Shown piece after piece: positions 1-43,447 of a stretch of DNA of 60,244 bases (positions are counted from its first letter, which is position 1; every line of letters begins with the position of its first letter). The stretch spans positions 1 through 60,244 of the forward strand of contig QMNM01000001.1 of assembly GCA_003647765.1 (NCBI GenBank), in the 5' to 3' direction. The stretch is from Candidatus Cloacimonadota bacterium. Lineage in GTDB: Bacteria; Cloacimonadota; Cloacimonadia; JGIOTU-2; B8-G9. The notes under the pieces are model-generated. The model was not told the origin of the DNA and ran no database searches. It worked only from the letters and a program-made list of their open reading frames with translations. Made by a program: the position numbers and the translations under genes.

Positions 1-123
1 AGAGAAAAGAGAAGAAGATATATTGAAGTGGCTGGATGATAACACTGAATCCTTACCTGAAGATTCTTTTCATCCTGAACTTATACCTGATTATACTCCG
101 ATTCCTTCCAAGCCTGTTTTGAA
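1..123. repeat. Terminal direct repeat copy A, identical to 60122-60244. Indicates a circular or circularly permuted genome of 60,121 bp.
   Basis: The window start agagaaaagagaagaagatatattgaagtgg...aagcctgttttgaa recurs exactly at the window end. Confidence 0.95.
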
Positions 124-5302: not shown

Positions 5303-7673
5303 AACTCAAATCCTTTCCTATTTTTCCTTCAGTTTCAATGGGGTATCCAACATTGATGCCCCAATGCTTTTTTATGTATTCTTTCGTTCTATTTTCAAAA
5401 CAATCTTTCAATATCTCTTGTGCTTTTTCGGCAACATCTTCTCTTGCTCTATAATAGTAGGCATCGTGGATAAAAAGGTTAGTCAGGATTACTTTATCTT
5501 TCAGGTCGGGGCGGGATTTTATTTCCTTCCAGAACAACATTATTCCAAGACATGCTAGTTCGCTACTGAAATTCTGAACAGGAGTATTGATTGCCTGCCT
5601 TTCCGCTTTACTTCTCAACCTGAAATCATCAGAATCAATATGCGGTAAATGTCTTTTCCTTCCTAAAACACATCTTATATACTTATGCTTTCTTGCAAAC
5701 TTAACCATTCGTTCATGATATAAAGGAAGTTTCCAGTATCCATTGGGTTTAGAGAAGAAAAGTTCTCTATATCGCTCTGCTTCTTCTAAAGTGAAGACGA
5801 CATCATAGTTTTTAAAAGCATAATCAACCAGAGAATTTGCCTGCATTCCGTATATTAATCCAAAATTTATCGGCTTTGAGAGCTGTCTCAAGTCTTTAGT
5901 AATTTCTTCTAAAGGCTTTCCTGAAATAAGGGAGGCTGTTCTTTTATGTAAATCTATCCCTTCATCTAAAGATTTCAGGATATTTTCATCTTGAGCCAGC
6001 CAGCCTATTATTCTCATTTCACTTTGACTTAAATCCTGACTGCATATAACCCAGCCATCTTCGGCTACAATATTTCCCAAAACCTTTTCAGAGAATTCTC
6101 CGTGTGCTGGAAATTGTTGCATAGGAGGGTCTAATATTACAGTTCTCCCTGTTACTGTTCCTGTTAGGAATATCTTTGGGTAAATATATCCATCTGGATA
6201 CAGATTTTTTCTTATTGCTTTGATGTAAGTGTTCAGAATTTTGCTTATCTGTTTATATCTTAATAGCTTTGCGACCCATTCGTTATCTTTGAATCGTTTT
6301 AGATGATATTTATCGGTAGAAGGTTGTTTTGTTTTTTCTGTAAATTCAACAGGTTTCAATCCCAGCCCTTTCTTTGTAAACATAAACTTTGCAATGATGT
6401 CGGGAGTTAATGAGTCTGCATCTTTCTTTATTGATTTAGGGATAGCATCCATTAATTCCTTTTCCAATTTTTTCATCTCTGTATAGAGAGAATCTTCGTT
6501 TTCATCTAGTTTATTCAGGTCTATTTTCCATCCGTTCGCAGATACATCGCTGAAAACGTTTTCAACGGGAAGGCAGTAATATTTGTAATATCTGGTTAAT
6601 TTTTTATCTTCCATAATCTTTTTCTTCAGGACATTGAAGACTTCAATAGTAACTTTAGCATCAAGACTGACATAATTCAGGAGCTTGCTTTCTTCTAATT
6701 TTTCCATCTCTGTCCTATTTCTATTCACTACATCTTTTATATTGTAGTAGGAAGTGAAGACATTTGCCAGATGCTCTAGGGAATAGGAAGCTAGGTTTTC
6801 ATCTACAACATGAGCCATTGTCATTACATCAAATATTTGTCCTTTAACTTCGCAACCAAGATTCTTTTTACATACAAGTTCATCAAAAGGACGATTATGC
6901 ACGACTTTCTTTATATTCTCATCTTCCAGTATTTTCTTTATACTTTCTTTGAGTTTATTGTCTTTGGTAAGGGATGCGTAGGGCAACCCTTCTTTTCCTG
7001 CCAGACCTATACATAAGACTTTTCCTTTCATGTGTGCGACCCGCAGGTTCTCTGTTTCAAGGTCAAAAGCTATTATTTTTCCTTTGGGCAAATTGATTGT
7101 TGTATATTCATGTTTAAAATCTTCCTTCTGTTTATAGAGAGCGACAGCATGTTTGATGTCGGCATAAAACAATTTCTCTACTTCATTCATCTTTTCTAAT
7201 GGAATATACGGATACCCACGCTTGCATTGTCTTAAAACATAGGCAGGATGAAATGTTGGAATAACAACAGCATCTCCGAAGGGAAATTGTAGTCCTCTGA
7301 AACTGGAAATTCTTTTCTTATTGAACATCTGATAGAGAGCCAGTTCTCCTAATAAGACAATCACTTTGGGTTTGAGGATTCCCAGAGCTTTTACAACATG
7401 TTCTTTACAGCACTTTGATGCTTTTTCTAAATCGGTTTTTTTATCCTGCCCTAATTTCTGGCACATTGTAGCATTCAAGATAGATATATCTACTCTAGAC
7501 ATCCCAAAGAGTGAAAACGTTTTCATTAAGAGTCGCCCACTTTCTCCTACAAAAGGACGACCTTCTCTTACTTCTTCCCACCCAGGACCTTCTCCTATAA
7601 CCACAAATTCAGGATTATTTTTCTCATATTTAACTTTCTTTCTTCCTTTAAAAGGACAATCTTTACAGCTCAT
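5289..7673 (-). CDS. polA: Family-A DNA polymerase fused to an N-terminal family-4 uracil-DNA-glycosylase-like domain and a 3'-5' exonuclease domain.
   Basis: UDG4 motifs GEGPG..PFVGESGRLL and HPAYVLR, plus N-terminal Cys residues. Exo I motif FDLETENL. Pol motif A DLSQSEMRI and motif B RQLSKPINFGLIYGM. Motif C-like IHDA. Confidence 0.9.
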   Translation of the reverse strand: MSCKDCPFKGRKKVKYEKNNPEFVVIGEGPGWEEVREGRPFVGESGRLLMKTFSLFGMSRVDISILNATMCQKLGQDKKTDLEKASKCCKEHVVKALGILKPKVIVLLGELALYQMFNKKRISSFRGLQFPFGDAVVIPTFHPAYVLRQCKRGYPYIPLEKMNEVEKLFYADIKHAVALYKQKEDFKHEYTTINLPKGKIIAFDLETENLRVAHMKGKVLCIGLAGKEGLPYASLTKDNKLKESIKKILEDENIKKVVHNRPFDELVCKKNLGCEVKGQIFDVMTMAHVVDENLASYSLEHLANVFTSYYNIKDVVNRNRTEMEKLEESKLLNYVSLDAKVTIEVFNVLKKKIMEDKKLTRYYKYYCLPVENVFSDVSANGWKIDLNKLDENEDSLYTEMKKLEKELMDAIPKSIKKDADSLTPDIIAKFMFTKKGLGLKPVEFTEKTKQPSTDKYHLKRFKDNEWVAKLLRYKQISKILNTYIKAIRKNLYPDGYIYPKIFLTGTVTGRTVILDPPMQQFPAHGEFSEKVLGNIVAEDGWVICSQDLSQSEMRIIGWLAQDENILKSLDEGIDLHKRTASLISGKPLEEITKDLRQLSKPINFGLIYGMQANSLVDYAFKNYDVVFTLEEAERYRELFFSKPNGYWKLPLYHERMVKFARKHKYIRCVLGRKRHLPHIDSDDFRLRSKAERQAINTPVQNFSSELACLGIMLFWKEIKSRPDLKDKVILTNLFIHDAYYYRAREDVAEKAQEILKDCFENRTKEYIKKHWGINVGYPIETEGKIGKDLSFNNP
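6551..6564. repeat. TGAAAACGTTTTCA palindrome, perfect copy, inside polA.
   Basis: Read as E-N-V-F. Confidence 0.95.
7512..7525. repeat. Palindrome, perfect copy, inside the polA UDG domain.
   Basis: Read as K-T-F-S. Confidence 0.95.
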
Positions 7674-7692: not shown

Positions 7693-8892
7693 TCATTGTA
7701 ATTTTAGGAAAGAAAAAATCCATGCTATTACATCAACAGTCCAAGCATTGCCTATTGTTTTATATCTTTGTGTGTCAGATATTTGTTTAATTCTGCCGTT
7801 TTCAAAAATTCCGTATTTTGTATAGTTATCGGGTAAAGTTTGTAATCTTTCACATTCAAGAGGAGTTAATCTCCTAATTTTTACTTTACTTCTATCTTTT
7901 TCAAACACAAGTTGTCTTCTATGCTTTTCAAAATACTGTTTCAGGTTTCCTCCTTTATAATAATTAGCATCAATACATAACGATTTGTTTCTATCTGTGA
8001 TATATTTTTCTTCAATTATTTTTGGTTGTCTGTAACCACCCTGCATTGTAGTCAATGTAGGAGATTTACCTTCAGAACTATAAATTCTTTTTATACAATC
8101 CTGTCCTTTTATAGCCAGCTCTGCTACTTGCCTGCATCTCAAACTTTCATTTACCCAACAATTTCCGTTTGAGAAATTTGTTCTCAATGTAGTAGCTTTT
8201 CCGTCAGTAATGTTCCTTCTGTTGTAAGGGTCTATAATAAAATCAAGTTTATCAGGAAGGTATTTAAAAGGCTTTTTTATGTAATATTTTTCATCTACTT
8301 CACTCTCCAAAATATCTTTCAGTAAAATACCTTTATCTTCTGGCAATCCTTTTATAGGTATATTTGTCCAATATAATCTCTTTCTATTTTGAGCTGATAC
8401 TAAAGCAGAATTGATTTCAACAGGTTCTACTTCCAGAGTTTCTGTTATTACTTTTTCCCATTTTTTCTGCATTTTTACATTTTCAAGCAAAAACCATTTA
8501 GGTCTAATTTCCTTTAATAATCTTACAAATTCCCAGAACAGATAAGATTGTCCTTCAAATTCAAATTTCTGCTGTTTTAATTCCAGATATTGTTCTAAAG
8601 TAGTAACTTCTATTTTTGTTTTAGTTGACATTCCATATCTTTTCCCACACAAAGAAAATCCCTGGCAAGGACTTCCTCCCATTATTAAATCAATATCTTC
8701 AAAATCTTCTCCTTTCAAATTTCTAATATCACCAACAAAGATTGTATTGGGAAAATTATATCTTGTTATTGCAATTGCATATTTATCAATCTCACTTGCA
8801 TAATAATTTTCATATTCAATACCTGCTCTATTCAGAGCTAATCTTCCACAAGAAATACCATCAAAAAGACTTAAGATATTCCTTAATTTCAT
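7693..8892 (-). CDS. DNA (cytosine-5)-methyltransferase.
   Basis: Motif I LFDGISCG, motif IV GGSPCQGFS, motif VI LLENV, motif X QRYKTIGNAWTV. Confidence 0.9.
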   Translation of the reverse strand: MKLRNILSLFDGISCGRLALNRAGIEYENYYASEIDKYAIAITRYNFPNTIFVGDIRNLKGEDFEDIDLIMGGSPCQGFSLCGKRYGMSTKTKIEVTTLEQYLELKQQKFEFEGQSYLFWEFVRLLKEIRPKWFLLENVKMQKKWEKVITETLEVEPVEINSALVSAQNRKRLYWTNIPIKGLPEDKGILLKDILESEVDEKYYIKKPFKYLPDKLDFIIDPYNRRNITDGKATTLRTNFSNGNCWVNESLRCRQVAELAIKGQDCIKRIYSSEGKSPTLTTMQGGYRQPKIIEEKYITDRNKSLCIDANYYKGGNLKQYFEKHRRQLVFEKDRSKVKIRRLTPLECERLQTLPDNYTKYGIFENGRIKQISDTQRYKTIGNAWTVDVIAWIFSFLKLQ

Positions 8893-8919: not shown

Positions 8920-9228
8920 TCAGGATTTCAAAAGTTCTAAAAAGTCTTTAACTCTAATAATCACAAAATCATTTTCATGTCTTTTTCCTGTAATATGCAC
9001 GACTACAATAGGGATCTTTCCTTTTGCCAGCGGGTCTTTTTTAGTGTATTCTTCCGCTTGCCGATACCATTTTTCTCCCACAAACTTCTTTCTTGATTTC
9101 GCTTCAATACAGAATTTCTCCGTTATTACATCGCTTTCTCCCAGCACTCCGACATCCTTTCCATTAAACAATTCAGCTATTGCTTTCTGGTTAGCCTTTC
9201 CTCTCCTTCTATTTCTCTTTGGATTCAT
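8920..9228 (-). CDS. Small PD-(D/E)XK nuclease, a possible Holliday-junction resolvase.
   Basis: GESDV...CIEAKSRK resembles a D...ExK core. The start was moved to the ATG at 9228, which has AAGGAGG 5 nt upstream. Confidence 0.55.
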   Translation of the reverse strand: MNPKRNRRRGKANQKAIAELFNGKDVGVLGESDVITEKFCIEAKSRKKFVGEKWYRQAEEYTKKDPLAKGKIPIVVVHITGKRHENDFVIIRVKDFLELLKS

Positions 9229-10018
9229 TTTTGTCCTCCTTAAAACATATACTTCTGAAAACACACTTCCTTGCAGGAGGAGATAATCTTGAATTACATA
9301 TTTTAGGAGAGTCTTTTGTGGGATTGAATAAATGCATGAGAAGTTCTTTTATTCTGTTTTCTATTGAATATTCGTTTTTATCCACAAAGAAAGGTTTGAT
9401 TTGCAGGTTTTGAAAGTCTTTTTTGAAATAGAGAACTACCGCTTTGTCTTTTCTGATATGGAATTTTTGTAATCCTTCGTCCAGCTTTACTTTCTTTCGT
9501 TTGAACATCCATAGGTAAGTTAGCACTTGAAAAACATGGTCAAATAAAGGTTCTTGTAAATCATCAAATTGTCGGGCATTTATGCTTTTAATTTCAGCAA
9601 TATAAATTCCTGTTGGGTCTTTATAGAGAGCATCAATGTTCCCTACCAGTTTGAACTTTTTATTTGATAATTCCAGTCTGTAATCTTCCTGAACCAGATG
9701 TTTGCAGGGAATACGATTCCAGTCCCTATAAGACAAATAGTAAACGGATTTGCATTTTGGGCATCTCCATTTTGAGATTAGATAGGAGCTATATCTAGAA
9801 AAGAAATGTTGAATCAGGATGCCGTAGGCATAGGCAAGCATAACGGGTTTAGCATAGACAGGAGATTTTCTGAAGGGCATATTGGTTTTTCTGCTGTAAT
9901 AGACCGCACGGGGGCAGATTGTTGGAAGGTCGGATACATGAAAATACAAATCATTTCTCTCCCTACCTTTAAACTCTGCCTTTAAATTGTTGTATATATC
10001 TTCAACTATTTCCTTCAT
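9209..10018 (-). CDS. Cas4/RecB-like PD-(D/E)XK exonuclease with a Cys cluster.
   Basis: NIDALY...IAEIKS (D..ExK), QVLTYLW (QxxxY), an N-terminal Cys (ICPRAVYY) and C-terminal CNSRLSPPARKCVFRSIC. Confidence 0.7.
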   Translation of the reverse strand: MKEIVEDIYNNLKAEFKGRERNDLYFHVSDLPTICPRAVYYSRKTNMPFRKSPVYAKPVMLAYAYGILIQHFFSRYSSYLISKWRCPKCKSVYYLSYRDWNRIPCKHLVQEDYRLELSNKKFKLVGNIDALYKDPTGIYIAEIKSINARQFDDLQEPLFDHVFQVLTYLWMFKRKKVKLDEGLQKFHIRKDKAVVLYFKKDFQNLQIKPFFVDKNEYSIENRIKELLMHLFNPTKDSPKICNSRLSPPARKCVFRSICFKEDKNESKEK

Positions 10019-10238
10019 CTAACATCTCCTTCTTTGTTTCGTTTAAAATAGACATGAGTTTGATAAATTTTTCCAATCTTTTATAGTTCAAAGGTTTTTC
10101 TACCAGAAGTCTATATACCTGTTGCATCTGGAATTTCAGAAGGGTCTCAAGAATTCGTTTTGCTTTCTCAAAATTTTTATCTGTCCAGTTATCTGGGTTT
10201 AGATAAATATTCATTAATTCTTCTACCAAACTCATCAC
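10002..10238 (-). CDS. Hypothetical protein.
   Basis: ORF in an operon with overlapping start and stop codons. No motif recognised. Confidence 0.5.
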   Translation of the reverse strand: MMSLVEELMNIYLNPDNWTDKNFEKAKRILETLLKFQMQQVYRLLVEKPLNYKRLEKFIKLMSILNETKKEMLDEGNS

Positions 10239-10666
10239 AACACTCCTATTTTTTTCAGAATTAGTTTATCCAAAATGAGCAAATTACCATATTCTTCCCT
10301 GAACATCCTTGCTTTCTTTTTCGCTCCAGCTTCCCATATACCTTTAATTTCAATGAAGTGTCCATTAACTTCAAAATCAGGAATATACCACTTCAGGTTG
10401 CTCAATCTGAAAGCATAAGGTTCATATTTCCATTTAAGTCTATATGCTTCGCAGAATTTTTTAGCGAAATCCAGTTCCCATCTGCTTCTGAAATTAAAAT
10501 GTGGAGGAAGTGGGAAGCCTCCTTTAATTCTCTGCGGAGGATAAGAAATCAAGTAATTAGCAAAACACTTTCCACTACAAAAAACACTATACTTATCCAC
10601 AAAAGGCATGATTACTCTTTTCTTACACCATAGACAATAATGTATCATTTTTTCCCCTCCCACCAT
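10235..10666 (-). CDS. Zinc-ribbon plus PD-(D/E)XK nuclease (DUF1064/TnsA-N-like pattern).
   Basis: CLWCKK...CSGKC followed by RSRWELDFAKK...YEPYAF...YIPDFEV..HFIEIKG. Confidence 0.55.
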   Translation of the reverse strand: MVGGEKMIHYCLWCKKRVIMPFVDKYSVFCSGKCFANYLISYPPQRIKGGFPLPPHFNFRSRWELDFAKKFCEAYRLKWKYEPYAFRLSNLKWYIPDFEVNGHFIEIKGIWEAGAKKKARMFREEYGNLLILDKLILKKIGVL

Positions 10667-11628
10667 TTGTTTATGATTTGGTTTACTAAATTATCCCTGA
10701 ACTCTAAATTTTCCATCAAAGTTTTTTCTATCTCTTTTTGTGTCTTATATTTATTTCCAGCGTATTCATAGGAAGATTTATTTCTATTGATTATTCCCAG
10801 ATCAAGGGCAAATTTCAGGATAAGATTTTCATCAACAACCTTTCCCTGCTGAATATCAATTTTAAACTCTCCGCTAATGCGTGGGTAACCAGCTTTATTC
10901 TTTTCTATTGTGAATTGATGAACAGCTCTGTAAGGAATATCTCCTTTAGTTTCATATTTGGACAGGTATAAATGCACTATGAGATAGGAGAGATGTTCAA
11001 CTATATATCCTCCTGGCATTCTGATTTTTGATTCAAATTTCCTTGCTCCGACATTAGCCCTAGCTTGGTTTATCAGGATGCAGGTCAAAGGTCGCTTTTC
11101 CTTTTGAGCATTTGCCATACTAACCAATAACTTATTGAGCATTTTCCTTATTAACCTTGCCGACCCAGCTACTTGAGTATCTTCACTATCGTTTTCAACT
11201 TCACTAATAGAGATAATGGCAGGCAAGCTGTCTATCACAATAAGACTTACAGCGGGTTCTAAACTCATCTGATAAGCCAAATCCACTCCTTGTTCTCCAT
11301 AATCAGGAGAGATTATAACGATCCTTTTCATATCAGATACAAAATTAGACATCCATTCTTTGTTTAATGCCTGTTCAAAGTCAATATAGACAACATAATC
11401 CTGTGAAAACGTTTTCAAAAAGGAATCAATTACTTTAAAACTGAATGTGGTTTTGCCCGAACTCTTTGTGCCCCATAGGGTCGTAAATTTATTTACAGGA
11501 ATCCCTCCACCTGTAAGCAAATCAAAAGTAAATATTCTTGTAGGGATTTTTGTTATATTTGGGAATGTCTCTCCTATATTCAAAACATTCCCATATTCTT
11601 TTGTTATCTTTTCAAACAGTTCCTTCAT
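10645..11628 (-). CDS. RecA-family recombinase.
   Basis: GGIPVNKFTTLWGTKSSGKTT resembles the RecA GGLP..GRI.EI.G.ESSGKTT motif. YIDFEQAL is present. Walker B is LIVIDSLPAI. Confidence 0.8.
   Translation of the reverse strand: MKELFEKITKEYGNVLNIGETFPNITKIPTRIFTFDLLTGGGIPVNKFTTLWGTKSSGKTTFSFKVIDSFLKTFSQDYVVYIDFEQALNKEWMSNFVSDMKRIVIISPDYGEQGVDLAYQMSLEPAVSLIVIDSLPAIISISEVENDSEDTQVAGSARLIRKMLNKLLVSMANAQKEKRPLTCILINQARANVGARKFESKIRMPGGYIVEHLSYLIVHLYLSKYETKGDIPYRAVHQFTIEKNKAGYPRISGEFKIDIQQGKVVDENLILKFALDLGIINRNKSSYEYAGNKYKTQKEIEKTLMENLEFRDNLVNQIINKWWEGKK
11404..11417. repeat. Palindrome, perfect copy, inside the recA-like CDS.
   Basis: Read as K-T-F-S. Confidence 0.95.
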
Positions 11629-12260: not shown

Positions 12261-13556
12261 TTAGAGTTTGATTATTTTAATTTTACAACCTTCATAATCC
12301 TTACTGCGTTTAGTGAAATAATTTCTCATCAAGGGAGAAAAGTTATCCACAATATCAACAATTATTGGCTGTCTTTTGTGTTCACTGATTCTCAAAACTC
12401 TCCCTATTGCCTGTTTGACTGAAGTTCTGGGAGTAGCCAGAATTAGACAATCAATATCAGGAGCATCAAACCCAATTCCCGATGCCTGATATGTCCCTAA
12501 AATAATCCTTTCCTTTCCTGTATAAGTTTTCTTTTCTCCTATAACCCACGCTTTATCAGGAACATCTATCAGCTTATTATACTCATAGAGCAATTCAAGA
12601 ATATCACTCAATATCAGAACTTTGTATCCTTTTTTGTAAGCCTTCAATGCTAGCTGGGCAACAATCTTATTCCTGCGTGGAATATTCAATTTCTTCAGGA
12701 ATCTACTTTTTATAAATCGCTTATTAATGAAACAATCTTTTGTGCTGGTCAATGGACTGTTGAATTCAATCTTCAGCACCTTTGGAGTAAGCAGGGTTGC
12801 TTCAGTCTTGGCTATAATAGGACCTATATGCCAGAAGAACAGATTTTCCATTCCATCTTCTCTATGCGGAGTAGCTGTCAGCCCTGTCCTGAATCTGGGA
12901 TTAAACAAAGTAACAGTTTGATTAAACTTCTCTGCTCCCAATATATGAACTTCATCATAGATTACATGTCCAAAATATTCTTTATAGGGAACTTCTTTCT
13001 TTCGTAATAATGTCTGGATCATGGCTATTGTAACAGGACGCAGGTCTTCTTTCTCCTGCCTGATTTCTCCCACTTCCATACCTAAAAATTCCTTTACCGC
13101 TCTTTTCCATTGTTCATAGAGTATTTCAGTATGAACGACAATCAGAGTGCGGTATTTTAATAGAGTAGCAAGATATAACCCAACAACTGTTTTTCCTGTT
13201 CCTGTTGGCATCTGGATAATTCCACCATAAGGAGCTTTTGTCTTTACTGCTTTTGCGTATTGAATCAGCACATCTTTCTGATATGGACGCAATTTGATGT
13301 TGTGTTTTAGCTTAACCCTTTCCCACTTTCCTTTTACTGGAGGATATTTTTTCAGCTTTAGGAAATAACGGGGGACTCCCACATAGTCCCCCTTGTTTTC
13401 ATAGAGAATGAGTGGCTCTTGCTCCCTACCAAAGTAGTCCTGTCTGGTTATAACCAGACGATTTAAATCTACTCTGGATTTGGGAACATAGAGCCACTCT
13501 TTACAGACAATTTTAGAACGGGACTTCATCGTCGTCATCGTCTCCTTTCTCATCAT
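12261..13556 (-). CDS. SF2 (DEAD/DEAH, XPB/Res-like) DNA helicase.
   Basis: LRPYQ, motif I MPTGTGKT, motif II DEVH, motif III GLTATP, motif VI QAIGRVLR. The exact start is uncertain because several ATGs lie between 13529 and 13556. Confidence 0.88.
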   Translation of the reverse strand: MMRKETMTTMKSRSKIVCKEWLYVPKSRVDLNRLVITRQDYFGREQEPLILYENKGDYVGVPRYFLKLKKYPPVKGKWERVKLKHNIKLRPYQKDVLIQYAKAVKTKAPYGGIIQMPTGTGKTVVGLYLATLLKYRTLIVVHTEILYEQWKRAVKEFLGMEVGEIRQEKEDLRPVTIAMIQTLLRKKEVPYKEYFGHVIYDEVHILGAEKFNQTVTLFNPRFRTGLTATPHREDGMENLFFWHIGPIIAKTEATLLTPKVLKIEFNSPLTSTKDCFINKRFIKSRFLKKLNIPRRNKIVAQLALKAYKKGYKVLILSDILELLYEYNKLIDVPDKAWVIGEKKTYTGKERIILGTYQASGIGFDAPDIDCLILATPRTSVKQAIGRVLRISEHKRQPIIVDIVDNFSPLMRNYFTKRSKDYEGCKIKIIKL

Positions 13557-14352
13557 CTAAATCGCTAAAATCTAAATCGTCATCTTCTTCGTCTTCTTCT
13601 TCGTCAATATCATTTTCTTCATTATCTTCTTCATCTTCTCCATCATCATTTTCTTCAAAGAGATCATCAAGTTCTTCTTCTTTTTCTTCTTCGTTATCTT
13701 CTTCCACAAAGAGATCGTCCAGTTCTTCATCAAGATTTTCTTCAGACCCGACAACAGTTACATCAAAACCCATGTTTTCTAATTCTTCATCAGTAGGAGG
13801 AGCTAGGACTTTCTCATAATCATAAGGTTCGGAGTCCTTTAGCTTCTTCAAATCTACTCTACCCAGTCTTTCAAATACAGCTCCGCAGTTTGGATCTTGG
13901 GCTGTATATCTTTTCACTTCAAATACAAGACCTCTTAAATTCTTTACCTTCTTCTTAATGTCTTCAATGATATTTATTGCACTCCCTTTTAAAGGCAACA
14001 GAACCTTCCTGTTTTTGAGCTTCCTTCCATCACTTGTTACGATTGTTCTAGTATCTATAATTGTGTAATATGCGGTATATGTTGGTCTATCTCCGCTCTG
14101 GCAGACAGGACAAGGCTTGAAGTCAGAAGTGCAGGTTACATAGTTGCCCCATCTTCCTGCTATTTTTAGGTTATGCTCTTTGATGTAGAAACCATCTGAA
14201 TCAAGAAAGATGATCTTCGCAGTTTCCTGCGGTCTTAACCTGAAGCGTGGGACGCTTTTCTCTTTCTTCATTTCAGCTATTGCATCTAATCTCTGCTTTT
14301 CCTTGAAACCTTCTTCTCCGATCCTAAACCATGTTGCATTTTTCTTTGCCAT
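13513..14352 (-). CDS. ssb: Single-stranded DNA-binding protein with a very long acidic tail.
   Basis: The C-terminus ...DDDDDEVPF resembles the bacterial SSB tip DDDIPF. CPVCQSGDRP is a Zn-like element. The gene sits beside the helicase and primase. Confidence 0.65.
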   Translation of the reverse strand: MAKKNATWFRIGEEGFKEKQRLDAIAEMKKEKSVPRFRLRPQETAKIIFLDSDGFYIKEHNLKIAGRWGNYVTCTSDFKPCPVCQSGDRPTYTAYYTIIDTRTIVTSDGRKLKNRKVLLPLKGSAINIIEDIKKKVKNLRGLVFEVKRYTAQDPNCGAVFERLGRVDLKKLKDSEPYDYEKVLAPPTDEELENMGFDVTVVGSEENLDEELDDLFVEEDNEEEKEEELDDLFEENDDGEDEEDNEENDIDEEEDEEDDDLDFSDLDDEKGDDDDDEVPF

Positions 14353-14364
14353 AACAGACCTCCT

Positions 14365-15291
14365 TTATATTTTTTTGATTGATTTTAATGCCTTGTTAAT
14401 AACTCCTTTTTCAACCATCTCTGCGGGATCATTACATCCTTGATAATCCTTTACTTTGTAGAAGACCATGTAATCTTTGAGCTTCTCATAAATTCTTTTT
14501 TCAGCTTTCTCTCCTGCCTTATCATTGTCAAAAAACAATACCAATTCTTTAGCTTCGCAGGTTCTCAAAGTTTTCAATTGAGCATTACTTATTTCCGATC
14601 CTCCCGCAGACCATACATTGTATATCCCAACATCCCATAACTTCAAAAGATTCCTTTCTCCTTCTACCAGAATTAAAGGCTCATCTGGATTTATAGGAAG
14701 ATGATAACCAAACCATACTCCCAAGCTGTGGGGCATCTGCCCCCCAAACTCTTTGTAAAATCTATATCTTGGTTGCTCTGGATCTAACCCTAAATATCTT
14801 CCTTTCAAGGCTATTACTCTATTGTTGTAGTAGCGAATTGGAATCACGACCCTTCTCTCTTTCGGATCATATCTCAATGAAAACGTTTTCACTGTTTCCT
14901 TCTTGAATAATTTTCCTGTGTAAATAGGGAAAGGAATATAGTTTATATATCTTGGTTTCTTCGGAGATATATCTCTGAACAGAGTAGGGATAAACAATTC
15001 CTTCTTCCCAAACTCTTTTAGAGAAGGATCATCTATTCCTGTTACATTTTTCCATGTATTATAGATACGGCTGACATGTCCTTTTATTCCGCACCCAAAA
15101 CAATGAAAGACACCGTTAGCTAGATTGATTCCAAACGATGGATTTCTATCCACTCCACCTTCATGAGTCCATTTTGCGAATGGGCAAGAGCTGTTTATCC
15201 AGTTCCCGTTTTTTCTGACCTGCGGGTTTTCTATCCCTAATCGGCGAAGCAAGTCTATATAAATGTGCAGGTTCATATATGTTTTGCCCAT
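14365..15291 (-). CDS. dnaG: DnaG-like primase (zinc finger plus TOPRIM).
   Basis: CPFAKWTHEGGVDRNPSF...FHCFGCGIKGH, then TOPRIM motifs LVEGERN and FFDNDKAGEKA. The start was set at the ATG at 15291, preceded by AAGGAGGAGG. Confidence 0.85.
   Translation of the reverse strand: MGKTYMNLHIYIDLLRRLGIENPQVRKNGNWINSSCPFAKWTHEGGVDRNPSFGINLANGVFHCFGCGIKGHVSRIYNTWKNVTGIDDPSLKEFGKKELFIPTLFRDISPKKPRYINYIPFPIYTGKLFKKETVKTFSLRYDPKERRVVIPIRYYNNRVIALKGRYLGLDPEQPRYRFYKEFGGQMPHSLGVWFGYHLPINPDEPLILVEGERNLLKLWDVGIYNVWSAGGSEISNAQLKTLRTCEAKELVLFFDNDKAGEKAEKRIYEKLKDYMVFYKVKDYQGCNDPAEMVEKGVINKALKSIKKI
14878..14891. repeat. Palindrome, perfect copy, inside the primase CDS.
   Basis: Read as K-T-F-S. Confidence 0.95.
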
Positions 15292-15514
15292 TTTCCTCCT
15301 CCTTTTCAGGTTTTCTAATGTTCCATTTTTTAAGATATTCATCATATAAATCCCACTCCTTATCTGTCATTATTAATTCTGGCTCTCCCATAAAACACAT
15401 TACAACAAACATCTCCATCATATAGGGAGTCCAATCTAAAGCCTGTTCTCCGAAATAGTGAATAAATGTCCTTATGATTCTATGTTGCTCTGGATGCAGT
15501 TTGATTTTCTTCAT
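15161..15514 (-). CDS. Hypothetical small protein overlapping the primase 5' end in another frame.
   Basis: 117-codon ORF. Its first roughly 75 codons fill the gap between dnaB and the primase start. Confidence 0.4.
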   Translation of the reverse strand: MKKIKLHPEQHRIIRTFIHYFGEQALDWTPYMMEMFVVMCFMGEPELIMTDKEWDLYDEYLKKWNIRKPEKEEENGQNIYEPAHLYRLASPIRDRKPAGQKKRELDKQLLPIRKMDS

Positions 15515-16697
15515 TTTTCACCTCCGAAAAATCCATTCTTTCCCAGTCCCAATTGATTTCAAAGGACTGGGTTATTCCTTCTCTATTTGCAAAAACATCT
15601 ATCACTTTTGTAGGAGAATTATCTTCTCCATGAATTCCTATTGCAACCGAAACTAATTGGCTCAAAGCATCGGTCAATTGTATCTTTTCCAGATCTCCTC
15701 CTTTAGTTCTTGATGCTTGTCTATTAAATTGGAACGAAACCACAAAAGGTTTGGAGTAAGTAAGAGCAAGGTTCTTTAGCTCATTGGCTAATACAGTCGC
15801 ATTCTCCCACAAACTCTTATAGTGCTTCTGGATTTTAATCAGATACCCGCCGTCAATGAACACAATATCTGGATTATATTTCTCTACAAGGAATGCAATA
15901 TCATCTATGGTTTTTGAAAACCTGCCTTCAACATATAAGAAAGGTAGTTCTGTATCCAGCAAGGAAGCGATTTCTCTTTCTGCAAATGAACTGATTTCTC
16001 CTGTATGAAGTGCAGAGAAATTCAGCTTGGAATGCAGAGCAATAATCCTTTTAGCTTGTTGCTTTATACTCATCTCCATTGAAATAAGCATAGGAATATA
16101 TCCCTGTTGGGCTACATGTAGAGCAGAATAAGCCATGATAAGAGATTTTCCCATCTTCGGTCGGGCAACAATCAGGTCCAAATCTTCTGGTTGATAGCCT
16201 CCAGTCAAGAAATCCAGCGTATCCCAGCCTGTTGGAATCCCAATTGGCTTATCTATCTTTGTTCTTTTCTCCTGAATATAATCCAGAACTGTTTGGGCTA
16301 AATCTCTGAAAGTTTTAACTCCATCTTCTATTTGCTTCAATCTCTTATATCTGGCAATAAACCTTTCCATTCTGGAAATAAGAGCATCAATCTCATGCTT
16401 CCGTATATCTTCTTCTATTTCAGTAGAGAGATTTAACAAATCTTCTTTGAGTTTCCTTTCTATGCACCGTTGATAGAGAAGATCAATAGGAGCATCGGGC
16501 ACTAGGATTTCTTCTTCATCTATCAGCTCGGCAAAGGTCTGGATTGATGGAAGGCTTCTATATTTCTCTACATATTCCTTTATTATTTTATATTGTTCCT
16601 TTTCGTAATCAATGAAAATGTTTTCATTCAGCAAACGAAATAACTTCAGATCCCTGTCTCGCAGTATTGCTACCAACAAATTTGTCCCGATTGACAT
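15480..16697 (-). CDS. dnaB: DnaB-like replicative helicase.
   Basis: GIPTGWDTLDFLTGG, Walker A ARPKMGKS, Walker B VFIDGGYL, then FQFNRQ. Confidence 0.9.
   Translation of the reverse strand: MSIGTNLLVAILRDRDLKLFRLLNENIFIDYEKEQYKIIKEYVEKYRSLPSIQTFAELIDEEEILVPDAPIDLLYQRCIERKLKEDLLNLSTEIEEDIRKHEIDALISRMERFIARYKRLKQIEDGVKTFRDLAQTVLDYIQEKRTKIDKPIGIPTGWDTLDFLTGGYQPEDLDLIVARPKMGKSLIMAYSALHVAQQGYIPMLISMEMSIKQQAKRIIALHSKLNFSALHTGEISSFAEREIASLLDTELPFLYVEGRFSKTIDDIAFLVEKYNPDIVFIDGGYLIKIQKHYKSLWENATVLANELKNLALTYSKPFVVSFQFNRQASRTKGGDLEKIQLTDALSQLVSVAIGIHGEDNSPTKVIDVFANREGITQSFEINWDWERMDFSEVKNEENQTASRAT
16613..16626. repeat. Palindrome variant TGAAAATGTTTTCA, inside dnaB.
   Basis: The central CG is TG. 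Read as E-N-I-F. Confidence 0.9.
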
Positions 16698-17934: not shown

Positions 17935-19461
17935 TCAATTCAATAATACCTTTTTATTTGCGGATTTTTTCTTTGTGGTAGAAGAATTAGCAAGTCTTGC
18001 TCTTGTCTTTCCCCATTCCCGCAACGCTTCAATTTCTTCTTTCCTGCTTACAGACAAAGGTATAGTTTCTTCTATTGCTTCCAGTATATCGTTATCATTC
18101 ATGTCTCTATCTTCATAGAAAGCCTTGAGTTTTGCTTGTTTTATTGCAGTTTCTATTTCCGCTCCTGTAAATCCTTTTGTTGCTTCTGCGATTTTATCCA
18201 GATCAAAGATTTCTGGTTTCTCTCCTACTTTTCGCAGATGTATCCTTGCAATTTCTTTCCTTTCATTAGGAGCGGGCAAATCCACAAACCATATCTCATC
18301 AATTCTTCCTCTCCTTTCTAATTCTGGAGGAAGGGCTAGGACATTATTAACTGTAAATGCAAAGAAAAGTGGAGCTGTATTTTCCTGCATGAAATAGAGA
18401 AAAGAACTAATTACTCTTGCAGTAGTTCCTGCATCAGAAGAATCTGATGAAGATAACCCTGAAAATGCTTTTTCCGCTTCATCTATCATTACCACTGCGG
18501 GAGCTTGGGCTTCTATTTCCTTTAAGACCTTGCGTGTGTTTGCTTCTGTTTCTCCTAATCTACTGTTAAATAACTTTCCTATATCCACACGCAATAAAGG
18601 AATCTGGAAAAGGTTAGCCAGAATTTTACAGGAGAGAGTCTTCCCTGTCCCTGGAACTCCAGCCAAAAGCATTCCTTTAGGGACAGGAACTTTCTTTTTT
18701 ATTGCCTGTTCTCTATTCTTGAAAACTTTGCTGACCATTATTGCCCATTGTCTTAAATTATCCAGCCCGCCCAGATCATTAATTGTTTCCTGTGGAGCGA
18801 TATATTCAACCAGCCCTTCTTTCTTTACCTTTTCCGCTTTCAATCTTTGAATCAATTGCGGATCTATTTTTCCTTTACCTTTCACAATCGCTATTTCAAA
18901 CATCTTTTGGGCTTCAATCAGAGTAAGCCCTGATAAATACTCCGCACATTCTTCTAATAAAACTTTCCTTACTTTCAGTTCTTCTCTTTTACAGATCTCT
19001 TTCAGGAGATCAAAAATTTCAGTCTTTGAAGGTAGCGGAATATCAATTACTTGGCAGTATTGGCTGATTTCTGGTGGCAGATTGAATTCTCCCTGCAGGA
19101 TTACATGAACGAATTTAGAACTGTTCGCTATTTTCCTGATAAAAGAAATAATCGCAGGAACATTTAATCCTTCCCTGATGAAGCGATGATAGTTTAGTAG
19201 GAGATAAATGGTAGGCTCATCTTCTTCTTCAGCGATATGCCGAAGGATGTCAAGATAATTAGCATATTCTCTATTCCCAAGTCCATCAATAGCGTCCCAG
19301 ATTTTTAATTGGTATTCGCTCAAATCTTCTATGCGGGAAGATTCTTTTAGCTTCTTATTCAGAACTCCCACCTGTTCCTTAACATATTCAATTGCTCTTT
19401 CTGTTTCTATTGTGTTTAAGACAATTATTTTACATTGACTTCTGATCAGAAGTTCCAGCAT
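17935..19461 (-). CDS. AAA+ ATPase (classic AAA clade, Ycf46-like architecture).
   Basis: Walker A GVPGTGKT and Walker B VVMIDEAEKAF. The AAA domain is in the C-terminal half of a 508-aa protein. Confidence 0.85.
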   Translation of the reverse strand: MLELLIRSQCKIIVLNTIETERAIEYVKEQVGVLNKKLKESSRIEDLSEYQLKIWDAIDGLGNREYANYLDILRHIAEEEDEPTIYLLLNYHRFIREGLNVPAIISFIRKIANSSKFVHVILQGEFNLPPEISQYCQVIDIPLPSKTEIFDLLKEICKREELKVRKVLLEECAEYLSGLTLIEAQKMFEIAIVKGKGKIDPQLIQRLKAEKVKKEGLVEYIAPQETINDLGGLDNLRQWAIMVSKVFKNREQAIKKKVPVPKGMLLAGVPGTGKTLSCKILANLFQIPLLRVDIGKLFNSRLGETEANTRKVLKEIEAQAPAVVMIDEAEKAFSGLSSSDSSDAGTTARVISSFLYFMQENTAPLFFAFTVNNVLALPPELERRGRIDEIWFVDLPAPNERKEIARIHLRKVGEKPEIFDLDKIAEATKGFTGAEIETAIKQAKLKAFYEDRDMNDNDILEAIEETIPLSVSRKEEIEALREWGKTRARLANSSTTKKKSANKKVLLN

Positions 19462-19510
19462 ATCTCCCTCCTTTTTATAGCCCCAGCATAGAGCTGGGGC
19501 ATTTGTTTGC

Positions 19511-19843
19511 TTATAGAGAGCGGTATCTTACATAGAAGAACTCAAAATCATCTTCTCCTACTTCCTTTCCTTTGTCTGCGGGATTGCTAACCCTGTATTT
19601 CAATTTCATAACCAGCATCTCATCTCCATCATTTAAATCAGTTTCCGCTCTATTAAGTGGAACTTCTATTCCTGTCCATTTTCTTATTAACTCAACATTC
19701 TGCGGATACCCTATATAAGACTCTAACTCACCCCTTTTGTGGGCTTTTTGGAGCAAGAGCTTAAACTCCTGAAAAGAAATTTTGTATGCAGAATACTGCC
19801 CTTCCTTTGGCATTACTGCAGAATTTAACAACTTTACTGCCAT
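19511..19843 (-). CDS. DUF1874-like protein (family of the AcrIII-1 viral ring nuclease). By-eye assignment.
   Basis: LLNSAVMP..., ...YIGYPQNVELI..., ...LNRAETDLNDGDEMLV... match my memory of the DUF1874 pattern. Confidence 0.5.
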   Translation of the reverse strand: MAVKLLNSAVMPKEGQYSAYKISFQEFKLLLQKAHKRGELESYIGYPQNVELIRKWTGIEVPLNRAETDLNDGDEMLVMKLKYRVSNPADKGKEVGEDDFEFFYVRYRSL

Positions 19844-19957
19844 GATAAACCTCCTTTTTTGGTTTTTATCCGCAAGGGATTATTTTGCACTCTTTACAAT
19901 TCTTGAACGGGCAGATGGAGCACTCACTTAAATCCATATCCACCTGCCCGTTCTCTC

Positions 19958-20131
19958 CTATTCGGAGACAGATATAATGCAATCTGTCTCCGTCAGATCT
20001 TCTTGTTCCAGAATTATTCCTAGTCTGTCTGTAATTTGCCTTATTGGTTCTCTGCATTCTTCCCCCCAAAAATTTTGCCCTTCTATTCTTACTTCCCCGT
20101 TTTCTTTGATTTCAATTTTAATTACAGGCAT
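19958..20131 (-). CDS. DUF2997-like small protein (57 aa). It is not in the supplied ORF track.
   Basis: Hand translation gives MPVIKIEIKENGEVRIEGQNFWGEECREPIRQITDRLGIILEQEDLTETDCIISVSE. An AAGGAGGG SD lies 5 nt upstream of the ATG at 20131. Confidence 0.6.
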   Translation of the reverse strand: MPVIKIEIKENGEVRIEGQNFWGEECREPIRQITDRLGIILEQEDLTETDCIISVSE

Positions 20132-20142: not shown

Positions 20143-20403
20143 TTATAGTTGTATAAAAATTGTGTTTTCTTTCTGTTCTACTATACCATTAACGAAATTT
20201 GATAAATAATCTGCAACAATACCAGTCAATTTTTCCGTATCCATATTATCGTATTTTACATATCCGTTATCATCTACATAAATAGGAGCGAACAAGCCTT
20301 GCCCAGTTATACGACCATTTTTCACTTTAAATCCTTTGCGTCTGGCACTTTCTAAAAACAAATTCTTTTCTACCTTTAGGCTTAATTTTACTCTTTGAGA
20401 CAT
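20143..20403 (-). CDS. DUF1257 (Ycf35)-like protein.
   Basis: N-terminus MSQRVKLSLKVEKNLFLESARRKGFKV. The size and its adjacency to a DUF2997-like gene fit the family. Confidence 0.45.
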   Translation of the reverse strand: MSQRVKLSLKVEKNLFLESARRKGFKVKNGRITGQGLFAPIYVDDNGYVKYDNMDTEKLTGIVADYLSNFVNGIVEQKENTIFIQL

Positions 20404-22088: not shown

Positions 22089-22117
22089 AATTTAATCACA
22101 GGTTTTGTTTTTGTCAA
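22089..22117 (-). promoter_or_regulatory. Sigma70-like leftward promoter.
   Basis: On the minus strand the sequence reads TTGACA, 17 nt, TAAATT. Confidence 0.5.
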
Positions 22118-22125
22118 GAAAAAGT

Positions 22126-22153
22126 TTGAAAATTTTTTCAAATTTATTATAAT
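22126..22153 (+). promoter_or_regulatory. Sigma70-like rightward promoter for the terS block.
   Basis: TTGAAA, 16 nt, TATAAT. A palindrome copy starts 7 nt downstream of the -10. Confidence 0.65.
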
Positions 22154-22159
22154 TGTCAG

Positions 22160-22173
22160 TGAAAACGTTTTCA
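22160..22173. promoter_or_regulatory. Palindrome, perfect copy, between the -10 element and the terS SD.
   Basis: It starts 7 nt after TATAAT and ends 12 nt before AAGGAGG. Confidence 0.95.
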
Positions 22174-22199
22174 ATTCAACAAAAAAAGGAGGTTGAGCG

Positions 22200-22676
22200 A
22201 TGAAATATTATTTGCCACCACCAAGAGAGTTCACAGATGAAGAATTGGAAGGTTTTGACAAACTTGGAGAGAAGGTCAAGAAGTTTGCCCACTATTATTT
22301 GACTACAAGGAAGCCTGTATCTTCTGCAATAAAGGCTGGGTTTAGTAGGGAGAAGGCAAGGTCAGCTGCGAATCGCTTACTCCAGAACAAGAAAGTCCGA
22401 AGGTATATTGAATATCTCAAAGCACAAATGAGACAGATGGCAGAAGTGGATAGGGATTATATTGTGTTAAAGCTCAAGGAGATTGTAGAGAAAGAGAATG
22501 CATCAGATCAGGTCAAGATTTCGGCATTGAATACGCTGGCAAAGATCGGAGGCTTTCTCCAAGATTCAAAGCCTCCGCAAACTTTCGTGTTAAATGTGAT
22601 AGGGCTAGATGAGGAAAAAGATAAAGTGAAGGAAGTTGGAGTGAGTGTTCAATTTGACAAGGTTGATAAAATTTAA
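22200..22676 (+). CDS. terS: Terminase small subunit.
   Basis: KFAHYYLTTRKPVSSAIKAGFSREKARSAANRLLQNKKVRRYI matches the Terminase_2 HTH pattern (NATKAAI.AGYS...A...). Confidence 0.8.
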   Translation: MKYYLPPPREFTDEELEGFDKLGEKVKKFAHYYLTTRKPVSSAIKAGFSREKARSAANRLLQNKKVRRYIEYLKAQMRQMAEVDRDYIVLKLKEIVEKENASDQVKISALNTLAKIGGFLQDSKPPQTFVLNVIGLDEEKDKVKEVGVSVQFDKVDKI

Positions 22677-26565: not shown

Positions 26566-26639
26566 GCCCAAATAACCCCACCCCTATCGGACACAGGGGG
26601 GTTTATATAGGGGACGGGGCGGGGCTTTTTGTGAACCTC

Positions 26640-26935
26640 TCACAAAAATCCCGAATTTCAGAAAATCCCAAATTCTAGAAAATCCTAAACTTTTAAAAAT
26701 TCTAAATTTTAACTTTCTCACAAAAATCTTAAATTTCAGATGAACTTCTCACAAAAATCCTAAATTTCAGAAAATCTTAAATTTCACAAAAATCCTAAAT
26801 TTTGTAAAAATCTTAAATCTTGAATTTTGTAAAAATCCTGAATTTTAGAAAACCTTAAAATTGAAAAATCCCGAATTTCAGAAAATCTTGAATTTTGTAA
26901 AATTCTGAATTTAGGAAATCCTGAATTCTTCTATA
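26640..26935. repeat. About 15 contiguous degenerate 17-18-bp units with consensus AAAATCYYRAATTTYAG.
   Basis: Examples are aaaatcccgaatttcag, aaaatcccaaattctag, aaaatcctaaatttcag, aaaatcttaaatttcac and aaaatcctgaattttag. CTCACAAAAAT is interspersed three times. Confidence 0.85.
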
Positions 26936-29164: not shown

Positions 29165-29760
29165 ACTCAACAATGCCACAGCAAGGGATTGGTAAACTTG
29201 GCACTGCCGTTGCCGCTCCTTACGAAACAATGCCTATGCTACTCTTTACGAAACAACACCTATCCTTACGAAACAGCACCTATGCTGCTCCTTACTGAAC
29301 TATACCCTGGCGATTCCTTACAAAACAATGCCTCTGCGATTCCTTGCCATACTAAACCTACGCCGAACACAACGATACTGCACTTAACCCCTGCCTATAC
29401 AACGCTACGCATTGTAGCACACCGCCCTTGCTATGATATTCAGTGCTTTGCCAATGCAAAACTTCTTGAAGCATTGCTCCGCCTTTGCTAAACCTGACTC
29501 TGCTAATCTCTGCCTCTGCTATACCTAGCCACTCCTTACTACTCATCACCACTGCTGGACAACTCATTACTTTCCGTCGCTTCACCGTTGCGAAACTAGG
29601 TATTACTTCGCCATTGCAAATCAGCACTCTACTTGACCATGCCTTTCCATTGCGTCCCACAACCCAACCATACAGAGCAATACCATAGCTTAACGGCACA
29701 GCACTAAACCATCGCCCGACTGGGCAACGCCTCTGCTCTGCAAAAATATACTATACGATG
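29165..29760. other. Non-coding island of roughly 600 bp. The plus strand is G-poor and C-rich, with degenerate roughly 26-bp repeats. Candidate ncRNA or cis element.
   Basis: In 29221-29280 I count 19 C and 6 G. Repeats of CCTTACGAAACA.. occur at 29216-29345. The three overlapping ORFs here have no SD and an atypical amino-acid composition. Confidence 0.7.
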
Positions 29761-41042: not shown

Positions 41043-42521
41043 ATGGCGATAATCAAGTTAAATGTCTCTATAAAGAAGCCAGTAATAAATTGTTCTATTC
41101 AGAAGAAGGAAATTAAGTGCACTTTTAGGGAAGTGCTTTTTACTTATAATGAGGATTATGAAGTTGATTTTTTAGCGAATCATTTAGAAGGTGCGGGCAA
41201 CATAAAGATAACCGAAGATGAGCAGAATAAGAAAGTTATTATAGATGATACACATGATCATGATTCGCAGTATTTAAAGAAGGATGAGAAGGCTGTGGAT
41301 TCGTTCAAGCTGGACGGCAAGGATTCTTCCTATTACACTACTGCCCAGAATATAACTTATGATAATTCCACATCGGGGCTTTCTTCTACAAATGTCCAAG
41401 ATGCAATAGATGAATTAGATGATGCGTTGGACAATTTATCTACTGATGCAAAGGATATAAATTATGATAATTCTACATCAGGCTTATCTGCTACCAATGT
41501 TCAGGATGCTTTAGATGAGATAGACAATAATGTAGATTCGTTAGAGAGTGATGTAAGCAATTTGAATAATGAAGTGAGTGGTTTAAATAATGATGTAGGT
41601 AATTTAAGTAATGAAGTTAGCAATTTAAGCGATGAGTTTGATGCACATAAGGCAGATACCAATAATCCGCACAATGTAGTAGCGTCGCAGGTTTCCTACG
41701 ACAATACCACTTCAGGTTTAAGTGCGGGCAATGTTCAATCTGCTATTGATGAAGTAGTTTCGGATTTAATTTCTCATATAAATGATCAGAATAATCCGCA
41801 TAATGTAACAGCGTCCCAGATAGGGGGGCAGAATATTTTAAATGAGCTTTTGAATGTAGATGGTAGCGGGTCGGGTTTAGATGCTGACCTATTAGACGGT
41901 TTTCATGCGGATACCAATCCTGCTCCAAATACTATTATTCCTTTGAATAATGTAGGTATTTTGGATTTATCGGAGACTTCAGCTAAGATAAATGCTTATA
42001 CTATCAGAAGGGTGGATTTGACTGATGCAGAAGAAGATTATTTTCTGGAGGTTGGGGAGGAAGCATATATAGAATTTACAAACACAACAGAAGTTCCTTT
42101 GCATATAGCTACAAGTAGTGGTTCTTATTATGAGCTTGATTTACTTCCCACTAATGAAGGTAGTCAAAGTGGGGGAGGAGTAGCTCCTATTTTTCTCAAA
42201 CCTAACAACACAACCTATTCAAATGCTTTTAAGTTTGCTCAAATGTTCAGGAATAGAGATACACACAGTTCTTCTTATGAAACTTTTTCGGCTTTTAGAA
42301 TTGGTTTTAATTGGGCACATATAAGATGTTATATATGGAACACGACGCAATATAAATCTATAATTAGTTTAAATAATCTGTATGGAGGTGATCCTGATTA
42401 CCCTGGTTTAGTAATTGCAAGCACTAATTGGCGGAATACAACTACTCCCTGGACTTCTCTTGGGACAATAACTTTTCCACAACTATCGTCAGGAAAAATT
42501 CTTATAAGGAGAATTTTATAA
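41043..42521 (+). CDS. Tail fibre protein with internal repeats.
   Basis: There are three copies of YDN(S/T)TSGLS..NVQ.AIDE. NNPHNV.ASQ occurs twice. Confidence 0.7.
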   Translation: MAIIKLNVSIKKPVINCSIQKKEIKCTFREVLFTYNEDYEVDFLANHLEGAGNIKITEDEQNKKVIIDDTHDHDSQYLKKDEKAVDSFKLDGKDSSYYTTAQNITYDNSTSGLSSTNVQDAIDELDDALDNLSTDAKDINYDNSTSGLSATNVQDALDEIDNNVDSLESDVSNLNNEVSGLNNDVGNLSNEVSNLSDEFDAHKADTNNPHNVVASQVSYDNTTSGLSAGNVQSAIDEVVSDLISHINDQNNPHNVTASQIGGQNILNELLNVDGSGSGLDADLLDGFHADTNPAPNTIIPLNNVGILDLSETSAKINAYTIRRVDLTDAEEDYFLEVGEEAYIEFTNTTEVPLHIATSSGSYYELDLLPTNEGSQSGGGVAPIFLKPNNTTYSNAFKFAQMFRNRDTHSSSYETFSAFRIGFNWAHIRCYIWNTTQYKSIISLNNLYGGDPDYPGLVIASTNWRNTTTPWTSLGTITFPQLSSGKILIRRIL

Positions 42522-43426: not shown

Positions 43427-43447
43427 CTCTAACAGGGAGGTGTGGTC

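Follow-up and report, generated by a model that had tools for sequence, protein, structure and literature searches.

The gene at positions 19511..19843 (minus strand, stop codon included) of the window, by which we mean the whole 60,244-nucleotide stretch of DNA that was analysed, encodes a protein of the DUF1874 family in which the catalytic general-acid histidine of AcrIII-1 and Crn2 is absent and a tyrosine, Tyr46, stands in its place in every alignment. The sequence comparisons indicate that this is a clade-wide state, coupled to coordinated changes in the lid loop, and not a single loss. The first-pass annotation had implied one isolated substitution, whereas Tyr is found in 205/205 of the clade and the lid loop has changed with it. 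The protein most likely neutralises cyclic tetra-adenylate (cA4), which it would either cleave with the help of Tyr and Lys or sequester, and the divergent nuclease and the cA4 sponge that were proposed at the outset are still the two leading explanations.

The gene is an intact open reading frame of 110 aa that runs from ATG to TAA, and a strong, consensus Shine-Dalgarno sequence, AAGGAGGT, can be read off the minus strand at 19849..19856, 5 nt 5' of the ATG. The product scored 54.2 bits against Pfam PF08960 (STIV_B116-like, formerly DUF1874; E 1.7e-14, gathering cut-off 26 bits), with profile positions 2-84 of 101 aligned, and matched PHROG phrog_5063 with E 5.9e-10. Sequence searches of the PDB returned DUF1874 proteins only. 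The top match was the Crn2 domain of Marinitoga Csx1-Crn2 (8Y7F, 8Y6Z, 8Y7G), with E 1.8e-08 for the single sequence and E 3.6e-14 in a profile search; AFV3-109 (2J6B) and STIV B116 (2J85) were also found, and SIRV1 gp29, which is AcrIII-1 (2X4I, 6SCF), was matched in the profile search. An AlphaFold2 model, calculated with 20 homologues as input, had a mean pLDDT of 90.4 and a pTM of 0.83. Comparison of this model with the PDB using Foldseek gave 17 matches at E < 0.001, every one of them a DUF1874 chain, with TM scores (normalised to query length) of 0.66-0.83. The best, at 0.83, was the cA4-bound Csx1-Crn2 domain, and AcrIII-1 (6SCF) reached 0.74; no fold outside DUF1874 was matched in the PDB below E 0.3, the next match lying at E 0.34. 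The protein belongs to the DUF1874 family and has its fold, as had been proposed from the motifs LLNSAVMP (residues 5-12), SYIGYPQ (42-48), LNRAETD (63-69) and GDExLV (GDEMLV, 73-78), all of which are present.

Tyr46 (codon TAT, 19706..19708, minus strand) occupies the column of the catalytic His47 of AcrIII-1 and His495 of Crn2, and two alignment methods agree with the earlier mapping of His to Tyr. HMMER places SYIGYPQ opposite SAIGHES in Crn2, SAIGHQA in AFV3-109 and NAIGHDS in B116, and MAFFT, run with full SIRV1 gp29 (NC_004087), places Tyr46 in the His47 column. The MAFFT alignment needs no change in loop length and pairs further gp29 residues with those of the 110-aa protein as follows: Ser49 with Gln48, Thr50 with Asn49, Arg66 with Arg65, Gln81 with Lys80, Arg85 with Arg84, Glu88 with Asn87, Gly89 with Pro88 and Leu92 with Lys91. 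The lid loop, Arg84-Val-Ser-Asn87-Pro88-Ala-Asp-Lys91-Gly92 (19568..19594, minus strand), was delimited by alignment with SIRV1 gp29, Crn2, B116 and Fnu1. It lacks the glutamate that supports the histidine in the known enzymes (Glu88 in AcrIII-1, Glu536 in Crn2): counted in register from Arg84 the residue is Asn87, and an alternative gap placement by HMMER sets Lys91 opposite the Glu, the residue being other than Glu in both alignments. The first-pass annotation had described an Arg/Glu motif as kept. This stands for the Arg of LNRAE, Arg65 (codon at 19649..19651, minus strand), which the alignments equate with the scissile-phosphate binders Arg66 of AcrIII-1 and Arg514 of Crn2. It fails for the neighbouring Glu67, whose column is not conserved (E 54, Q 45 and K 22 in Tyr-type sequences, mostly Q in His-type ones), and for the conserved pair Arg85/Glu88 of the lid loop, which reads Arg84/Asn87 with the Glu replaced. 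Equivalents of the cA4-contacting residues are present at Asn7 (N8/N451), Ser8 (S452), Arg65 (R66/R514), Lys80 (K529), Leu81 (L530) and Arg84 (R85/R533), all of them conserved in Tyr-type and His-type proteins alike; in the known enzymes Asn8/N451, Arg66/R514 and Arg85/R533 grip the scissile phosphate and lock the lid. The ligand-contacting positions that are altered are 48/49 (S49/T50 in gp29) and 68 (I69/I517).

When 1.84 billion cluster representatives were searched exhaustively with phmmer, 532 relatives emerged at E <= 0.001, 261 of them at E <= 1e-10. A first set, consisting of the best 150 of these 532 matches and 20 from a word-indexed search (169 distinct sequences), has Tyr in column 46 throughout (169/169). 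A second search with a mixed Tyr/His profile yielded 205 Tyr-type and 56 His-type sequences, reference sequences included, and across both types the column holds Tyr (205) or His (56) and nothing else. Not one Tyr-type sequence carries Phe at this position, with pairwise identity in the type falling to about 20-40%, whereas Tyr, Phe and Trp interchange freely at the aromatic core positions 100, 102 and 107 of the retrieved relatives; this contrast points to selection on the Tyr46 hydroxyl itself. Around the ligand site the two types (n=205 and n=56) part company at position 83 (Tyr in 187 Tyr-type sequences; Ser, Gly or Gln in the His type), 87 (Asp 79 and Asn 69; Glu 54), 88 (Pro 135; Gly 53), 91 (Lys 199; Leu 53) and 92 (Gly 177; Thr 33 or a gap in 14), and they also differ at position 74 (Asp in 194; mostly Gln). 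The coupled lid changes at Lys91, Asp/Asn87 and Pro88 map to the zone of contact between lid and ligand. Common to both types are Asn7, Gly15, Tyr17, Ser42, Gly45, Arg65 (195/205 in the Tyr type, 56/56 in the His type), Lys80, Leu81 and Arg84 (202/205 in the Tyr type), a set that includes the cA4 phosphate and adenine contacts of the two solved complexes.

A neighbour-joining tree built without columns 46, 83, 87, 88, 91 and 92 has one branch that parts all 56 His-type sequences from all 204 of the Tyr type that were left by the coverage filter. Tyr-type sequences are on average 39% identical to one another and 25% identical to those of the His type. Monophyly of the Tyr type across the whole DUF1874 family is likely, short of proof, since the His-type sample is small and made up mostly of Fusobacterium-phage-like and Firmicute-element proteins. 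In an all-against-all search the clade comprised at least 150 clusters at 50% identity; the distinct Tyr-type sequences retrieved number 205.

The absence of these two residues has to be set against what is known of the His-type enzymes. His47 of AcrIII-1 has been termed the absolutely conserved general acid, and its replacement by Ala lowers the rate >2500-fold (10.1101/778746). In Crn2, the N451A, H495A, R514A and E536A variants all have markedly reduced ring-nuclease activity, which is abolished in R514A or H495A; the proposed role of E536, the equivalent of Glu88, is to keep hold of the His495 imidazole, and H495A retains cA4 binding with a Kd of about 32-62 nM (PMC11317161).

The reading that we prefer, tentatively and at somewhat less than even odds, is Tyr/Lys-assisted cleavage of cA4 by an early phage DUF1874 protein. 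We infer a small dimeric protein, expressed early by a tailed phage, that would bind cA4 in the conserved dimer-interface pocket beneath the mobile lid loop and cleave it to A2>P without a metal ion, keeping cA4-activated effectors off. In place of the His47/Glu88 pair stands the invariant Tyr46, together with Asn/Asp87 and the clade-specific Lys91 of the lid loop. We propose that the Tyr hydroxyl and the Lys ammonium act on the leaving group and the transition state, by donating a proton or by stabilising them, at a rate probably unlike that of the His-type enzymes and most likely slower. The retained pocket, the retained lid Arg and a cA4-bound Crn2 domain as best structural match all suggest cA4 or a close analogue as the ligand. 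Cleavage is favoured because a Tyr hydroxyl that never varies, and that occupies the place of the general acid, speaks for a re-built rather than a dead active site. Tyr and Lys are also used by Cas6 and the tRNA splicing endonuclease, which are metal-independent RNA (2'-OH) transesterases, and we counted this precedent in favour of Tyr/Lys cleavage; a point against it is that at neutral pH Tyr performs poorly as a general acid. Further support comes from the near-invariant Lys91, which occupies the lid position whose backbone (Leu92) touches cA4 in gp29 (10.1101/778746). On the other side, AcrIII-1 without its His is slowed >2500-fold, Crn2 without its His is inactive and E536A is crippled, so the loss of both residues here could mean no catalysis at all. 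Also against this reading, the ligand-contacting positions 48/49 and 68 differ, and no Tyr-type gene was linked to a type III CRISPR locus among the loci examined; SIRV2 gp37, a His-type homologue, had no anti-CRISPR action in native infection (10.1101/2023.01.10.523387).

Sequestration by a non-catalytic or very slow cA4 sponge, with the pocket kept, the general acid lost and cA4 held under a closed lid, is a possibility that we regard as doubtful. AcrIII-1 and Crn2 carrying a His-to-Ala exchange still bind cA4 tightly without cleaving it, and a sponge would be compatible with the lack of the catalytic His and of the Glu that partners it, with conserved phosphate- and base-contacting residues, and with the additional lid Lys, which could increase affinity; it is, moreover, well established that phages use sponges against other immune nucleotides. 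A sponge has no obvious need, however, for an invariant Tyr hydroxyl (0/205 Phe). It would also be required in stoichiometric excess, and the genomic context has no sign of unusually high expression, and one small domain that offers each dimer a single site would be less economical than the known multi-site sponges. The same fold might instead serve another ligand, such as cA3, cA6, a CBASS cyclic oligonucleotide or a different adenylate signal, which it would cleave or bind. The clustering of clade-specific changes at the ligand site (46, 48/49, 68, 83 and 87-92), the deep split from the His-type proteins and the fact that Tyr-type genes were never beside type III cas genes in the loci examined are all in line with such a switch; we nevertheless think it unlikely, given that N7, S8, R65, K80, L81 and R84, which make the two-fold cA4 phosphate and adenine contacts, are retained, that the cA4-bound Crn2 domain gives the best superposition with the model, and that the alignment with gp29 involves no altered loop length. 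A more radical variant, to which we likewise assign a low probability, would make the Tyr/Lys clade a mechanistically distinct anti-defence class, either retargeted to a nucleotide other than cA4 or acting as a single-use covalent trap. In the trap, Tyr46 would attack the cyclic nucleotide to give a phosphotyrosyl adduct, from a setting flanked by two Arg and a Lys that would resemble the arrangement in topoisomerase IB and tyrosine recombinases.

A function unrelated to nucleotides seems improbable, whether inhibition of a host protein, as reported for SIRV2 gp37 and its target SiL_1451, or the DNA-binding role first put forward for AFV3-109 and B116. A second role has indeed been reported for a DUF1874 protein, SIRV2 gp37 binding the lysine methyltransferase SiL_1451 (10.1101/2023.01.10.523387), relatives are annotated in GenBank as "DNA binding protein", and the gene studied here sits among replication genes; yet those neighbours are not conserved in the relatives, gp37 is an active ring nuclease as well, and conservation peaks precisely at the cA4 pocket and lid. 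The notion of a decaying or inactivated copy, or of a His CAT read in error as a Tyr TAT, has in its favour that the two codons are one base apart, and it is extremely improbable nonetheless: the reading frame is intact with a strong ribosome-binding site, the identical protein occurs on other contigs, and Tyr is found in 205/205 relatives along with many further invariant positions. We consider sequencing error and pseudogene to be ruled out by this conservation.

The window covers the greater part of the genome of a tailed phage, about 62 kb in size, with a small terminase (22200-22676), a large terminase of 960 aa (33084-35966, plus strand), a head-tail adaptor (phrog_332, 35974-37980), a tail-fibre-like protein (41043-42521) and a major head protein (43442-44371). 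Replication and DNA-modifying functions are encoded by a family A DNA polymerase (5289-7673), a DNA methyltransferase (7693-8892), a Cas4-like exonuclease (9209-10018), a UvsX-like recombinase (10645-11628) and helicase, primase and DnaB genes (12261-16697). The DUF1874 gene is wedged between the gene for a DUF2997 protein of 57 aa (19958-20131, minus strand; 30.9 bits against a cut-off of 24.1), itself preceded by an unassigned 86-aa ORF (20143-20403, minus strand), and its 3' neighbour in the same operon, the gene for a 508-aa AAA+ ATPase (17935..19461, minus strand; Pfam AAA E 1.2e-23, phrog_8638 E 4e-108). The ATPase also has a sub-threshold match to the model of the anti-phage ATPase IteA. 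Between the DUF1874 stop codon and the ribosome-binding site of the ATPase gene lies a GC-rich hairpin of 8 pairs, 7 of them G-C (19480..19500), which the terminator scan reported on the plus strand only. Since a T-run follows it on the non-coding strand and none lies 3' of it on the minus (coding) strand, it probably serves RNA stability or attenuation rather than full termination.

The operon with the DUF1874 gene likely starts about 2.3 kb upstream, in a divergent control region where a consensus scan found two sigma-70-like promoter matches that point leftward (11/12 and 10/12; 22089..22174, minus strand). The total of such matches was not above shuffled expectation, and a promoter function at this site is suggested by its position alone. 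The DUF1874 gene is about the seventh in this leftward operon, ahead of the replication genes, an order that makes early expression plausible. No CRISPR array was found in the window, and no cas or CARF domain among the neighbours of the DUF1874 gene there. A thermophilic host, which the first-pass annotation had suggested, is plausible in view of the composition (36-39% GC, a coding strand strongly loaded with purines, and an IVYWREL fraction that at 0.429 corresponds to about 67 C by the Zeldovich relation) and of the closest genome-collection relatives, which are from Persephonella and Caldisericaceae MAGs.

Several other features of this genome deserve a record. In an ORF of 1759 aa (23-5302, plus strand) the C-terminal 460 residues match the DarB-like anti-restriction phrog_10089 (E 1.5e-18), and this ORF, the DNA methyltransferase and the Cas4-like exonuclease are several candidate counter-defence genes. 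The large terminase is unusually long, with an N-terminal PhoH-like ATPase match and, at residues 500-597, a short match to a ribonucleotide-reductase PHROG; it could be a fusion or carry an intein. Dense short direct repeats with the core AAAATCCYAAATTT, in at least 10 copies and several registers, fill 26632-26919, where there is no ORF of 90 aa or more, and look like an iteron cluster or replication origin, or like an array of regulator-binding sites. At 29191-29358, where ORFs on opposite strands overlap, an 18-nt motif, TCCTTACGAAACAAYRCC, occurs in at least 5 copies, mostly 26 nt apart.

The Tyr-type gene is carried by 28 IMG/VR viral contigs, and on long contigs it is found within blocks of small early genes or beside replication genes. 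Its other neighbours are orphan DNA methyltransferases (often), terminase and a relaxase/zeta-toxin plasmid backbone. Both of the closest genome-collection relatives have an orphan N6/N4 DNA methyltransferase within 1-1.5 kb past the Tyr-type gene; the regions noted near the gene are 9322-10080 in one (L001) and 9578-10669 and 11035-11580 in the other (L002). The Persephonella contig also has a 181-aa ORF that matches a portion of the profile for Druantia DruA (E 1.2e-08). On a circular-looking 47-kb ENA contig (L040) the Tyr-type gene (8001-8429) is accompanied by a relaxase, a giant zeta-toxin/helicase protein and a HepT/MNT toxin-antitoxin pair, and its presence on this plasmid-like element means that the clade is not confined to phages.

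No cas genes were found near Tyr-type genes in the Persephonella, Caldisericaceae and Omnitrophota MAGs, one further MAG and seven long contigs, in every one of which the genes seen were those of phages or plasmids. The AAA+ ATPase and replication genes were considered as conserved partners and rejected, being absent beside the Tyr-type gene in 32 other loci, and neighbours were held in common by one group only, of 8 syntenic phages. Fusions to CRISPR-related domains were likewise dismissed: ten longer homologues carry just NUMOD3, HTH or N-methylation motifs, or nothing, and their extensions are most likely gene-call read-through. A six-frame profile search for a second DUF1874 copy or a His-type paralogue found none, each locus having one copy. 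A megablast search with 20 kb of the sequence against GenBank phages gave no match, and tblastn found no Tyr-type gene in those phages, only nine His-type matches at identities of 36% or below. The BFVD viral structure library contained no Tyr-type sequence and nothing above 26% identity, NCBIfam has no model, and a full-text literature search found no paper on a Tyr-type DUF1874 variant, including the biochemistry of any member. The clade thus seems to be known from uncultivated elements alone, and the GenBank annotation of relatives is still "DNA binding protein".

AcrIII-1/Crn2 is, to our knowledge, the main known viral counter-measure to type III CRISPR signalling, and its mechanism is taught as relying on an absolutely conserved His. 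A large clade without that His or its Glu partner, in which the cA4 pocket is kept, contradicts this picture, and the protein described here is best regarded as a member of the DUF1874 fold that fails two catalytic hallmarks rather than as a simple AcrIII-1. It follows that virome surveys which count "ring nucleases" by HMM lump together two groups that differ biochemically and that anti-CRISPR predictions based on the His are incomplete. If a covalent trap or retargeting were true, His chemistry would be one of at least two solutions on the DUF1874 fold. In type III CRISPR-based diagnostics, a thermostable Tyr-type member would also be a handy reagent with which to switch off cA4 or buffer it.

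Among known systems, the phage sponges Tad1, Tad2, Acb2 and Acb4 resemble the Tyr-type protein in a possible mode only, the sequestration of immune second messengers, and are unlike it in sequence and fold (Pfam, PDB and BFVD); Acb4, considered as a relative, has a dsRBM-like fold and is unrelated. The His-type DUF1874 proteins of bacterial phages and ICEs, such as Fusobacterium phage Fnu1 gp081 and P0245 of a Firmicute element, likewise stand alone, measure 105-110 aa and are encoded on mobile elements of bacteria, with about 28-32% identity to the Tyr-type protein, but they keep IGH and R-x-x-E-G-x-x-L and fall on the other side of the tree. AcrIII-1 (SIRV1 gp29; 2X4I, 6SCF) shares with the Tyr-type protein the Pfam family, the fold (TM 0.74), a length of about 110 aa, carriage by a virus, equivalents of Asn8, Arg66 and Arg85, and an S-x-I-G motif that carries the catalytic residue. 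Its location on a mobile element outside a CRISPR locus is also paralleled, the relatives of the Tyr-type protein lying on phage and plasmid contigs. Identity to AcrIII-1 is nevertheless only about 21%, His47, Glu88, Gly89, Leu92, Ser49 and Thr50 are replaced, and AcrIII-1 is a protein of an archaeal rudivirus whereas the Tyr-type protein studied here belongs to a bacterial tailed phage. Adjacency or fusion to type III cas or effector genes, as for Crn2, was seen neither here nor in the relatives examined. Crn2 (8Y7F, 8Y6Z, 8Y7G) is all the same the best structural match, with TM 0.80-0.83 at about 30% identity, and its N451, S452, R514, K529, L530 and R533 are all matched in the Tyr-type protein. 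The two differ in that Crn2, which works with His495/Glu536, is part of a CARF-HEPN effector fusion encoded at a type III CRISPR locus, whereas the Tyr-type protein is stand-alone and phage-borne and has Tyr46/Asn87 together with Lys91.
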